In this document: positions 25,970 to 28,106 of the stretch, one piece after another
How positions within the stretch are numbered: the first letter of the stretch is position 1
Layout: every line of letters begins with the position of its first letter
Source of the DNA: Calditrichota bacterium
GTDB taxonomy: Bacteria > Calditrichota > Calditrichia > Calditrichales > Calditrichaceae
Assembly (NCBI GenBank): GCA_024278755.1
Contig: JAJRSO010000061.1
Coordinates: 114,938 to 178,937 of the forward strand
DNA length: 64,000 nucleotides
Reading direction: 5' to 3'
The notes under the pieces: model-generated
What the model was told of the DNA's origin: nothing
The model's database searches: none
The model's input: the letters and a program-made list of their open reading frames with translations, nothing else
Translations under genes and position numbers: made by a program

Positions 25970-25998
25970 TTGACATACAAAAAGAATATTCTTATCTT
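25970..25998 (+). promoter_or_regulatory. sigma70-like promoter candidate TTGACA-N17-TATCTT for the tRNA locus
   Basis: TTGACA 25970-25975, 17-nt spacer, TATCTT 25993-25998; about 50 nt upstream of the first tRNA-like element. Confidence 0.4.
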
Positions 25999-26049
25999 TG
26001 GCAACTCATTTACGGAATCGTTCAATTAGGAGAGATTCCAAATGATTCT

Positions 26050-26113
26050 TGCGGGATCGTCTAGTGGCAGGACGTCCCGATTCTCGGGATAGCCGCCGGC
26101 TACTAGGGAAGGC
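26050..26113 (+). pseudogene. tRNA-Gln-derived element: 5' 25 nt identical to tRNA-Gln, anticodon arm replaced, 3' half degenerate
   Basis: TGCGGGATCGTCTAGTGGCAGGACG is identical to 26141-26165; then GTCCCGATTCTCGGGAT (26074-26090) replaces the CTG anticodon arm; no 3' acceptor strand complementary to TGCGGGA. Confidence 0.6.
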
Positions 26114-26140
26114 TCTTTTAAATTAAGTATATGTTTTATT

Positions 26141-26211
26141 TGCGGGATCGTCTAGTGGCAGGACGCCTGGTTCTGGCCCAGGTAGCCGGGGTTCGAATCC
26201 CTGTCCCGCAG
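26141..26211 (+). tRNA. tRNA-Gln (anticodon CTG)
   Basis: Cloverleaf folded by hand: acceptor TGCGGGA/TCCCGCA, anticodon stem CCTGG/CCAGG, loop TTCTGGC (CTG at 26173-26175), T-loop TTCGAAT; no encoded CCA. Confidence 0.9.
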
Positions 26212-26234
26212 CACAGTTCTTTACAGCACCATCT

Positions 26235-26308
26235 GCGCCCATAGCTCAACTGGATAGAGCGTTTGGCTACGGACCAAGAGGTTGGGGGTTCGAATCCTCC
26301 TGGGCGTA
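26235..26308 (+). tRNA. tRNA-Arg (anticodon ACG)
   Basis: GCGCCCATAGCTCAACTGGATAGAGC D-arm typical of tRNA-Arg; loop CTACGGA (ACG at 26269-26271); T-arm GGGGG-TTCGAAT-CCTCC. Confidence 0.9.
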
Positions 26309-26312
26309 CATT

Positions 26313-26342
26313 AAAAAAAGCACTCGTAATGGGTGCTTTTTT
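26313..26342. terminator. bidirectional rho-independent terminator AAAAAAAGCAC-tcgtaatgg-GTGCTTTTTT
   Basis: A-run / GC core / T-run hairpin immediately after tRNA-Arg. Confidence 0.6.
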
Positions 26343-26360
26343 ACATCTGATGTTTTTTTT

Positions 26361-26427
26361 GGCGCGTTCGTCTATTGGTTTAGGACGTCCCGATTCTCGG
26401 GATAACACGGGTTTCGTGTTTGCGCCG
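26361..26427 (+). ncRNA. tRNA-Glu-derived compact cloverleaf (copy 1), not a canonical tRNA
   Basis: Acceptor GGCGCG/TGCGCC, D-arm as tRNA-Glu, anticodon-position hairpin TCCCG-ATTCT-CGGGA, T-position hairpin AACACG-GGTTT-CGTGTT; both loops 5 nt, no TTCGA T-loop. Confidence 0.5.
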
Positions 26428-26504
26428 GAAAGCAACACACATTCGTTGTTCATTGATTTATGCACGAATGTAGACAACTGATTTTTTTATTTGTAGTTTT
26501 TTTT

Positions 26505-26571
26505 GGCGCGTTCGTCTAGTGGTTTAGGACGTCCCGATTCTCGGGATAACACGGGTTTCGTGTTTGCGCCA
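26505..26571 (+). ncRNA. tRNA-Glu-derived compact cloverleaf (copy 2)
   Basis: Same as copy 1; its first 27 nt are identical to genuine tRNA-Glu at 26649-26675. Confidence 0.5.
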
Positions 26572-26648
26572 GAAAGCAACACACATTCGTTGTTCATTGA
26601 TTTATGCACGAATGTAGACAACTGATTTTTTTATTTGTAGTTTTTTTT

Positions 26649-26721
26649 GGCGCGTTCGTCTAGTGGTTTAGGACGCTGGCCTCTCACGCCGGTAACACGG
26701 GTTCGACCCCCGTACGCGCTA
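26649..26721 (+). tRNA. tRNA-Glu (anticodon CTC)
   Basis: GGCGCGTTCGTCTAGTGGTTTAGGAC Glu-type D-arm; anticodon stem CTGGC/GCCGG, loop CTCTCAC (CTC at 26683-26685); T-arm ACGGG-TTCGACC-CCCGT; acceptor 3' strand ACGCGCT. Confidence 0.9.
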
Positions 26722-26745
26722 CTCTTTTACTAACTTGCCTAAATT

Positions 26746-27225
26746 ATGTCCGATTCAAATTTATCTGTACAAAAATCCCATGAATATTTTATGCAACAGG
26801 CCATCATCGAAGGCCAAAAAGCGCTTAAAAACGGCGATGTTCCCGTTGGCGCCACGGTTGTTCTAAATGGCAGGATTATCGGCCGCGGTTACAATCAGGT
26901 AGAACTGCTCAAAGACCCGACGGCCCATGCCGAGATGATTGCCATAACGGCGGCATCTAATTCCATCGGCGAAAAATGGTTGCGGGAGGCATCCCTATAT
27001 GTAACCGTCGAACCCTGTTCCATGTGTGCGGGAGCCAGTGTGCTGGCGCGTTTGAAACAGGTTATTTACGGAACGCCGGATATTAAAACAGGCGCGCATT
27101 CCAGTCTATTCAATCTGCTTAACGATCCTCGTCTTAATCATCGTATTGAAGTGATTGCGGGTGTCCTGAAAGAAGAGTGCGCCGCCTTGATGGTGGATTT
27201 TTTTGAATCTCTGCGCCGAAAATAA
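26746..27225 (+). CDS. tadA: tRNA-specific adenosine-34 deaminase
   Basis: 159 aa; CDA zinc motifs HAEMIAI and PCSMCAGA; starts 24 nt after tRNA-Glu. Confidence 0.9.
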   Translation: MSDSNLSVQKSHEYFMQQAIIEGQKALKNGDVPVGATVVLNGRIIGRGYNQVELLKDPTAHAEMIAITAASNSIGEKWLREASLYVTVEPCSMCAGASVLARLKQVIYGTPDIKTGAHSSLFNLLNDPRLNHRIEVIAGVLKEECAALMVDFFESLRRK

Positions 27226-27419: not shown

Positions 27420-28106
27420 ATGAGCAAAACGCTTCTTCTCATTGATGACGACAGGAGATTAAATAGTCTTTTGTCGGACTATCTTAAGAAATTTGGATTC
27501 GAAGTGTACCCCGTTACCCATCCCGAAACCGGTTTACGCTATCTTGCAGAGCATTCTCCCGATTTGATTATCCTCGATATTATGCTTCCGGATATGAATG
27601 GATTTGAAGTCTGTAGGCGCATTCGTAAAAATTACAGCACGCCCATTATTATGCTCACAGCGCGCGGCGAAGTAACCGATCGTATTGCCGGTCTGGAAAT
27701 TGGAGCCGATGATTATATGCCTAAGCCGTTTGAACCGCGAGAGCTGGTTGCCCGCATTCAGACTATTTTACGCCGCGGCTCTTTACGGAAAAATGTAGGA
27801 ATATTAACGTTCGGTATACTTTCAATTAATTTAGCCGGACATAGCGCCGCGCTCAACGAAGAACAAATCGATCTGACCACAGCAGAATTTGAGATTTTAA
27901 AATATTTCGGAACAAATCCCGGAAAGGTGTTAAGTCGAGACGATATAATGGACAAAATCCGCGGTATTGAGTGGGATGCCTTTAACCGCTCGGTAGACGT
28001 GTTGGTCAGCCGGTTGCGGCAAAAGCTTGGCGATGACCCCAAAACTCCCCGTTTTATTAAAACCATCTGGGGCAGTGGATACATGTTCATTGGAGGAAAT
28101 ATATAA
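27420..28106 (+). CDS. OmpR/PhoB-family response regulator
   Basis: 228 aa; receiver (LLIDDD, LIILDIMLPDMNG, KPF) plus winged-helix output (IKTIWGSGYMF). Confidence 0.9.
   Translation: MSKTLLLIDDDRRLNSLLSDYLKKFGFEVYPVTHPETGLRYLAEHSPDLIILDIMLPDMNGFEVCRRIRKNYSTPIIMLTARGEVTDRIAGLEIGADDYMPKPFEPRELVARIQTILRRGSLRKNVGILTFGILSINLAGHSAALNEEQIDLTTAEFEILKYFGTNPGKVLSRDDIMDKIRGIEWDAFNRSVDVLVSRLRQKLGDDPKTPRFIKTIWGSGYMFIGGNI

Follow-up and report, generated by a model that had tools for sequence, protein, structure and literature searches.

Introduction

In Escherichia coli, tRNA and rRNA operons harbor tRNA-linked repeats (TLRs), most of which have no known function (Egan and Landy 1978; PMC8144298). tRNA-derived sequences with a role other than decoding have also been described. 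In Bacillus cereus, tRNA-Other is a non-decoding pseudo-tRNA with a regulatory role (PMC3399842), and the tRNA-operon spacer 3'ETS-leuZ acts as an RNA sponge (cited in PMC8144298). We looked at a tRNA locus from a Calditrichota bacterium, contained in a stretch of 64,000 nucleotides (the window; all positions refer to it, and all the features described in it are on the + strand). In this locus, two tandem units resembling tRNA-Glu(CTC) stand immediately upstream of the genuine gene, and a partial tRNA-Gln copy stands further upstream. An original prediction, made by a model from the letters alone, had described the units as compact cloverleaves derived from tRNA-Glu and had taken the survival of their helices as a sign of a structured RNA rather than of a pseudogene. 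In our literature search, no paper was found that connects Caldithrix with tRNA-like elements. There is about an even chance that the units are tandemly duplicated and disabled tRNA-Glu(CUC) pseudogenes of the tRNA-linked repeat kind, which have acquired a hairpin from the pseudo-tRNA-Gln and are probably transcribed as spacer.

Results

Tandem units derived from the adjacent tRNA-Glu gene

Using Tandem Repeats Finder, a repeat with a 144-bp period was detected at 26352-26675 (2.2 copies, 98% matches, score 634). By direct comparison, unit 1 (26361-26504) and unit 2 (26505-26648) are identical at 142 of their 144 positions, the two differences being located at 26375 (T/G, in the D-loop) and 26427 (G/A). 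The third copy runs into the genuine tRNA-Glu(CTC) gene (26649-26722), whose first 27 nt continue the repeat and are all identical to unit 2; unit 1 matches 26 of these 27 positions, with G changed to T at 26375. In alignment A2, each unit retains from tRNA-Glu nt 1-27, with the acceptor 5' strand and the D-arm, as well as the variable region and the start of the T arm; the sequence TAACACGGGTT of tRNA-Glu is also present in the units. Both the repeat structure and the tRNA-Glu origin had been predicted and are borne out here. The 17-nt anticodon arm of tRNA-Glu was found to be swapped exactly for the 15-nt sequence TCCCGA-TTC-TCGGGA, and in place of the distal T arm there is a fold-back hairpin, the 5' arm of which is old tRNA sequence. 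In unit 1, the part corresponding to tRNA-Glu nt 1-27 (26361-26387) is followed by the hairpin motif (26388-26402), a T-like hairpin (26404-26420), the sequence TGCGCC that resembles an acceptor 3' strand (26421-26426), a spacer with an 8-bp hairpin (26439-26471, arms 26439-26446 and 26464-26471), and a T-rich tract (26482-26504). The corresponding parts of unit 2 are the motif at 26532-26546, the T-like hairpin at 26548-26564, and TGCGCC at 26565-26570. The array is thus a repeat within a tRNA operon that carries a segment identical to part of the adjacent tRNA-Glu, as tRNA-linked repeats do.

For either unit, the minimum free energy (MFE) structure given by RNAfold is the four-helix cloverleaf; the z-scores (-1.7 and -1.8) are modest. 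The helices are the acceptor GGCGCG/TGCGCC, the D-arm, TCCCG-ATTCT-CGGGA, and AACACG-GGTTT-CGTGTT, meaning that all four can form in this genome, including the one that uses TGCGCC as its 3' acceptor strand, as the original prediction had stated. Canonical bacterial tRNAs have a 7-nt anticodon loop with U33 and a purine at position 37, a 7-nt T loop of the form TTCRANY, and a 7-bp acceptor stem. The units depart from this at each point, with an anticodon-arm loop of 3-5 nt (A-TTC-T), a T-like loop GGTTT, and a 6-bp acceptor that includes a G-U pair. We took as a tRNA any sequence matching Rfam RF00005 with at least 29 bits or called by ARAGORN. In a 3-kb search, neither the units (26361-26648) nor the pseudo-tRNA-Gln (26050-26140) matched RF00005, even at E<=10, and ARAGORN called no unit, even at -ps70 or in -mt mode; both methods called only the three genuine tRNAs. 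No tRNA-like Rfam family (tmRNA, YrlA, mascRNA, viral tRNA-like structures) was found on the units; sub-threshold scores for YrlA (18.2 bits) and mascRNA (22 bits) both overlay genuine tRNAs. At the E-value thresholds, the pseudo units of the window and of the related loci L005 and L021 matched no Rfam family.

The 8-bp hairpin and the T-run predicted at the end of each unit are both present, but they do not form a canonical intrinsic terminator: the stem is A+T-rich, the loop has 17 nt, and the T-run begins 10 nt past the stem. A promoter and terminator scan of the window detected no promoter-like or terminator-like site inside the units, and the sequence TAGACA-17-TAGTTT, which can be read there by eye, is weak. 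The idea that each window unit is a gene with its own promoter and terminator was rejected, as the scan found neither signal inside the units.

The cloverleaf in related genomes

Syntenic loci were found via tadA homologues; many short-read contigs end at this locus. Throughout Calditrichia, the genes keep the order Gln(CTG)-Arg(ACG)-Glu(CTC)-tadA. Partial tRNA copies litter this locus, and their number and layout vary even within a species. The nearest relative (L008/L009/L010, TadA 87% identical to that of the window) has the pseudo-tRNA-Gln and pseudo-tRNA-Glu arranged as in the window, with at least two pseudo-tRNA-Glu units. The L008 unit has about 94 bp, with a 4-nt T-like loop, a 3' strand ACCGCC that makes only 4 bp with GGCG, and a spacer that is shorter than and unrelated to that of the window. 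The layout differs in L009, a contig of the L008 species, where a foreign-type Arg 3' half is present that L008 does not have. L003 contains two pseudo-tRNA-Gln units and no 5'-type pseudo-tRNA-Glu. T11 (L004/L001) lacks a pseudo-tRNA-Gln and has one 5'-type pseudo-tRNA-Glu with a truncated T arm, together with several 3'-type units downstream of tRNA-Glu; the latter are full-length tRNA-Glu paralogues that carry G10A, C12A, and the hairpin, with an intact T arm and 3' end. A 5'-type copy with the loop GTCC was found in L027, and L019 has a decaying 3'-type copy with the loop TCC, in which decay is even (one change in the motif loop and about five in the flanks). The tRNA cluster of L015/L016 and that of L025 contain no pseudo units at all. 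L024 and L025 have an identical tadA and are identical from tRNA-Arg onwards, with unrelated sequences upstream; this pair was set aside as evidence of presence or absence, since it may be an assembly chimera. The differences between L024 and L025 and between L008 and L009 reflect either recombination between lineages at tRNA genes or chimeric assemblies.

To look at the conservation of the cloverleaf, five 5'-type units from three lineages were compared over the 21 proposed pairs. No compensatory change was found in this set, none of the 21 pairs having changed on both sides. The D-stem and the hairpin are invariant and thus uninformative either way. For the acceptor helix, 73% of the cells are paired: L008 retains 4 bp, and in the 5'-type unit of T11, which also lacks the T-like hairpin, hardly any pair is left. 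Moreover, the positions of G18/G19 in the D-loop have changed in upstream copies, at 26375 in the window and to TACTGA in L008, and the 78-nt spacer of the window has no homologue in any relative. The TTC that the original prediction placed at positions 34-36 is not kept, and an anticodon mimic (UUC, for Glu) was rejected: L019 has the loop UCC and L027 the loop GUCC, and the UUC loop also occurs in a Gln body. The absence of compensation, the broken helices, the D-loop changes, the unique spacer, and the unconserved TTC indicate that, as far as these alignments go, the cloverleaf is a property of the copies of this lineage and not a conserved fold. That helices still pair in one genome does not show a structured RNA, and the argument from helix survival against a pseudogene fails. 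Altogether, the original description of the units is accurate, while its interpretation is partly supported.

A palindrome common to tRNA-Gln and tRNA-Glu copies

The motif TCCCGA-TTC-TCGGGA is a perfect 6-3-6 palindrome. The anticodon-arm hairpin proposed for the units therefore exists, but is better described in this way than as a 5-bp stem with a 5-nt loop. For the 18-mer GTCCCGATTCTCGGGATA, 0.03 occurrences were expected in the window and three were found. Its third copy (26074-26091), which the original prediction did not list, lies inside the pseudo-tRNA-Gln, about 300 bp upstream of the pseudo-tRNA-Glu units. Elsewhere in the 64 kb the motif was not found, even at 3 mismatches, and a mobile palindrome of the repetitive extragenic palindrome (REP) or miniature inverted-repeat transposable element (MITE) type was rejected on this ground. 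A CsrA-type GGA sponge, by analogy with E. coli RrA/B/F, was also rejected, as the GGA triplets are in stems and not in hairpin loops.

With their flanking bases, the arms of the palindrome correspond to tRNA-Gln, GTCCCG being nt 65-70 and CGGGAT nt 3-8. By sequence, the arms are thus the two strands of the tRNA-Gln acceptor stem in permuted order; the probability of such a match by chance was estimated at about 0.02, allowing for the stems of the three neighbouring tRNAs. The palindrome overlaps a second one, GGACGTCC. In the Glu units, neither arm has an alternative partner, meaning that the motif is a plain hairpin there. The T-like hairpin (AACACG|GGTTT|CGTGTT) and a mini-hairpin of the pseudo-tRNA-Gln have another signature: their 5' arm is old tRNA sequence and their 3' arm its exact reverse complement. 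Such a signature is left by fold-back (template-switch) events, and these two hairpins were presumably made in this way.

Within the genome collection, all matches to the exact 20-mer GGACGTCCCGATTCTCGGGA were in Calditrichia/Caldithrix assemblies, apart from one chance match in Mycobacterium, and among GTDB species representatives only 4 contain it. It was absent from viral contigs, and a metagenome scan returned only two chance matches, inside a high-G+C superoxide dismutase gene. Across the relatives, the hairpin is conserved together with a GGACG flank. Other flanks of the pseudo copies follow the tRNA-Glu of their own genome, with TAGTGG in the window and L008 and TAGCGG in T11 and L019, which points to recent duplication or gene conversion. 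Statistical support for the conservation of the hairpin comes from the pseudo-tRNA-Gln copy.

The pseudo-tRNA-Gln leader

The transcription unit of tRNA-Gln and tRNA-Arg starts with a sigma-70-like promoter, TTGACA-17-TATCTT (25970-25998; promoter scan, 10/12 matches), the same sequence being present in L008. It is followed by a probable decayed 5' remnant of tRNA-Gln (TTTACGGAATCGTTCAATTAGGAGAGATTCC, 26009-26039), recognized by its similarity to Gln nt 1-30, and by the pseudo-tRNA-Gln itself (26050-26103 overall), just upstream of the genuine gene. Its acceptor 5' strand and D-arm (26050-26074) match nt 1-25 of tRNA-Gln at 25/25 positions (blastn-short, alignment A4). Next come copy 1 of the hairpin motif (26075-26089), with arms equal to acceptor nt 66-70 and 3-7, and the stretch 26090-26125, made of the mini-hairpin TAGCC-GCC-GGCTA, CTAGGGAAGG, and a TCTTTT tract, which forms the terminator-like helix B described below with the 3' arm of the motif. 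In folds of homologues, copy 1 has two alternative partners, CGGGAT (26053-26058) and CTAGGGAA downstream.

Alignment A4 comprises the window, L008, and the two L003 copies. In the block GTGGCAGGACG-TCCCGATTCTCGGGA-TAGCC-N-CCGGCTRC, 2 of the 40 columns are variable, against 33 of 59 in the flanks (Fisher p = 9e-8; 5e-5 for the motif alone). In L008 and L003, the 5' strand of the D-stem is mutated and CGGGATC is kept. The lowest-energy fold of the pseudo-tRNA-Gln in L008 and L003 is not the palindrome hairpin and uses two other helices (z = -2.4 and -2.6). In helix A, CGGGAU pairs with GUCCCG, and in helix B, AUUCUCGGG pairs with CCUGGGAGU downstream, enclosing the mini-hairpin and followed by a conserved UCUUUU tract. 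Helix B is paired at 91%, versus 27-49% in slid controls, and five of its pairs were altered on one side only with pairing kept (A-U to G-U, G-C to G-U). In three lineages, with the structure derived from one of them, these predicted folds are suggestive of an attenuator layout, in which segments 1:2 and 3:4 (terminator-like) would compete with 2:3 (the palindrome). Such a layout would explain why the sequence of both palindrome arms is frozen, and the region 26009-26125 may be a transcription attenuator of the Gln-Arg unit.

Genes of the locus and other hairpin-bearing tRNA fragments

The genuine tRNA genes of the cluster, all called by ARAGORN, are tRNA-Gln(CTG) (26141-26212; Rfam tRNA 58.3 bits), tRNA-Arg(ACG) (26235-26309; 62.9 bits), and tRNA-Glu(CTC) (58.4 bits). 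tRNA-Arg is followed by a terminator-like hairpin, GCACTC-GTAAT-GGGTGC with a T-run (26320-26343), an equivalent of which is present in all the relatives. The tadA gene (26746-27225), encoding tRNA adenosine-34 deaminase, was identified by Pfam PF14437/PF00383 and by homologues named TadA by their sources. Since the gap between tRNA-Glu and tadA is 23 nt long and contains neither promoter nor terminator, tadA is probably, from its position, co-transcribed with the tRNA cluster. TadA edits tRNA-Arg(ACG), so the enzyme is probably co-transcribed with a cluster encoding its own substrate, an arrangement conserved across Calditrichia. The neighbouring genes in the window encode GNAT, OTCase, TPR, TadA, a two-component system, and an RND pump, with no integrase or transposase among them. 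A eukaryotic SECIS_1 model scored 29.3 bits (gathering score 35, E = 0.005) at 27436-27490, at the start of the response-regulator gene, and this is almost certainly a chance match.

Hairpins were also observed in tRNA fragments of other kinds in Calditrichia. In 5' fragments of pseudo-tRNA-Arg, the D-loop contains an inserted hairpin of 60-90 nt (L021 2499-2747, L024 1598-1735, and L019 385-482 on the - strand). By RNAalifold, 10 of the 36 pairs of this insertion are compensated, and the outer helix is still paired although its sequence is wholly different between lineages. In 3' fragments of tRNA-Gln, tRNA-Glu, and tRNA-Arg, two hairpins are inserted at one position of the T-loop, after GGTTC (L021 2520-2585; L003 6978-7046, - strand; L032 60-128 and 218-330). 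Covariation was seen in the first of these hairpins; the second reads UCCC-UUN-GGGA throughout. In the second L032 unit, the insertion is longer and nested, and a promoter-like TTGACA lies upstream. In L005 (7790-8000, - strand), the exact 20-mer lies at the edge of the stored locus. Beyond it come about 200 nt with a strongly structured fold (z = -3.1), which are made of tRNA-like pieces with a repeated CAGCCYGACGAAGGAGGG and match no Rfam family. Downstream of tRNA-Ser in L017 (853-1075), a 70-nt repeat is present in three tandem copies with TCCCGG..CCGGGA hairpins, and downstream of the tRNA-Ser genes of L034 (3147-3385 and 3475-3680), repeated CTTAGATCCCGAT..ATCGGGA hairpins were found. 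Calditrichia tRNA trailers thus seem generally rich in repeats and hairpins. Since all these hairpins are near-perfect palindromes, self-correction at the DNA level is a possible alternative to selection at the RNA level.

Discussion

Tandem duplication of a disabled tRNA-Glu gene, the explanation we favor, could have taken place as follows. The palindrome would have arisen in the tRNA-Gln context, where each of its arms has a second partner. Recombination or template switching across the D-arms, which are nearly identical, would then have transferred a copy of it to a duplicate of tRNA-Glu. The array may have grown by unequal crossing-over, which would explain the near identity of the two units, while gene conversion may have kept the parts homologous to the real gene similar to tRNA-Glu. 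The units are probably transcribed as a spacer of the tRNA-Glu/tadA precursor and would be removed by an RNase P cut at the 5' end of the genuine tRNA. They presumably do not decode, with no sign that they act as tRNA mimics, and the hairpin core may still have a function.

Several observations weigh against duplicated pseudogenes as the whole explanation. All of the about 15 copies observed, from at least six lineages with intergenic spacers that can no longer be aligned, have an identical hairpin stem, and gene conversion from the pseudo-tRNA-Gln cannot explain all of this identity, since T11 and L019 share the stem and have no pseudo-tRNA-Gln. The hairpin was never overwritten by a real anticodon arm, though its flanks match the tRNA-Glu of the same genome. 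A real tRNA has a 12-bp stack, and this length is also reached in the window by the acceptor and the T-like hairpin together, at 6 bp each. As would be expected of an independent small-RNA gene, a promoter-like TGTATAAT and a good terminator accompany the 3'-type units of T11. Finally, that the units are spacer is something we infer.

It is possible, though we consider it doubtful, that one part of the Gln- and Glu-type units works as an RNA module in both, the remainder being dispensable and free to decay; this core would comprise the 3' half of the D-arm, the UCCCGA/UCGGGA hairpin, and the beginning of the variable region. Under the same doubtful proposal, some factor would bind the core, which would serve in the recognition, processing, or stabilisation of the tRNA-operon precursor. 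This would fit a stem that is invariant across lineages while its loop varies (TTC, TCC, GTCC), the conservation of the pseudo-tRNA-Gln block with regard to its flanks, and the fact that the core is always kept whereas decay affects the 5' strand in the T11 3'-type units and, in the window units and in the 5'-type unit of T11, the 3' part. The compensated pairs of the pseudo-Arg insertion (10/36, three lineages), the covarying first hairpin of the T-loop insertion, and the similar TCCCGA..TCGGGA hairpins after tRNA-Ser genes in L034 also argue for it. Contrarily, the motif itself has no compensatory change, so that a constraint on structure looks the same as one on sequence, and the Glu-type flanks are as conserved as the motif and give no separate selection signal. 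The exact 20-mer is restricted to those 4 species representatives, the units are wholly missing from some relatives, and near-perfect palindromes such as all these hairpins are also produced by fold-back of DNA. It appears unlikely that each unit gives a stable cloverleaf tRNA-like RNA of about 66 nt, used as a decoy or regulator that would bind, for instance, GluRS or another enzyme of tRNA-Glu/tRNA-Gln. In the window the MFE structure is the four-helix fold, and in L008 this fold comes close to it; the acceptor and T-like helices could stack over 12 bp, and the T11 3'-type units, with their promoter-like and terminator sequences, fold as an acceptor/T-arm minihelix with a hairpin arm. The tRNA-Gln and tRNA-Glu bodies, which both carry the hairpin, are moreover substrates of one enzyme family. 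Such an RNA is difficult to reconcile with the absence of covariation, the helices lost in relatives, a D-stem destroyed in the pseudo-tRNA-Gln of L008 and L003 and in the T11 3'-type units (G10A, C12A), the mutated G18/G19 of outer copies, the unconserved loop "anticodon", folding z-scores that remain weak (-1.3 to -1.8), and the lack of a match among Rfam tRNA-like families.

The palindrome could also act as DNA, either as a site for a dimeric regulator (a roadblock or operator in tRNA transcription units) or as a recombinase site, which we hold to be quite improbable. A perfect 6-3-6 palindrome that is conserved in sequence rather than as a covarying structure, that overlaps the second palindrome, and that sits in the Gln unit between the promoter and the genuine tRNA would suit such a site. 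But it occurs only in tRNA-derived contexts and never alone, a loop of 3 or 4 nt would shift the spacing of the half-sites, the helix B changes that keep pairing are of the G-U type, which counts only in RNA, and no regulator or recombinase gene is conserved beside the locus. Mobile-element integration is the commonest known source of partial tRNA genes (PMC9897764), and recombination breakpoints were found inside tRNA-Arg in L024/L025 and L009; the fragments could accordingly be attL/attR scars of integrative elements that target tRNA genes. We regard this as very improbable: the units follow one another at 144 bp with no cargo, are contiguous with the gene, and have no integrase nearby, the copies are 5' fragments upstream of the gene, the original anticodon arm would have been kept, and the motif is absent from viral contigs.

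If the units are duplicated pseudogenes, this locus is a well-documented case of tRNA loci collecting and remodelling partial gene copies. A 15-nt hairpin persists unchanged in Gln- and Glu-derived copies across diverged Calditrichia. Beyond the units themselves, we would tentatively suggest, with more doubt than conviction, that Calditrichia tRNA operons carry an undescribed family of cis-acting RNA elements built from tRNA fragments, which together would tune the transcription or processing of Gln-Arg-Glu-tadA and perhaps sense a tRNA-binding protein. Its members would be the leader made of tRNA-Gln acceptor strands, as the source of the palindrome, the pseudo-tRNA-Glu modules with the same hairpin core, and the hairpin-capped Arg, Gln, and Glu fragments with covarying D-loop and T-loop insertions. 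If the hairpin or the attenuator-like leader is functional, this would be a rare regulation built into bacterial tRNA operons from tRNA fragments.

Partial copies beside an intact gene, which gene finders reject or call pseudogenes, are also seen among integration-derived tRNA fragments (PMC9897764; Williams 2002 as cited there). Unlike those, the present units have no element between fragment and gene, are in tandem, and have an internal arm replaced. The likeness to E. coli TLRs is in being short repeats located in tRNA operons, containing part of a neighbouring tRNA gene, in one to several tandem copies. E. coli TLRs are transcribed with their operon, and the same is probably true of the units here. 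The shared part is different: TLRs have 18-19 bp of the 3' end of the upstream gene, whereas the units have 27 nt of the 5' end of the downstream gene and about 13 nt of the variable/T region. The units therefore do not share the 3' end of an upstream gene that characterizes the E. coli repeats; 3'-type copies downstream of tRNA-Glu are present in T11 and L019. Also unlike TLRs, the units have an arm replaced exactly by a palindrome and are capable of forming a cloverleaf, and their sequences are unrelated to those found in E. coli. T-box, PyrR, and TRAP type leaders are transcription attenuators with alternative helices. The pseudo-tRNA-Gln leader is similar to these in having four segments that are predicted to pair either as 1:2 and 3:4, the latter a terminator-like hairpin with a U tract, or as 2:3, the palindrome. 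This likeness concerns the pseudo-tRNA-Gln copy and not the pseudo-tRNA-Glu units, and the leader would stand upstream of a tRNA instead of an mRNA. Finally, tRNA-Other is a full cloverleaf that tRNA finders call, whereas the units, known from their sequence, have neither canonical loops nor a conserved fold. Both tRNA-Other and 3'ETS-leuZ are tRNA-derived RNAs or spacers with a non-decoding role, and it is these two that the units would resemble if they were functional.

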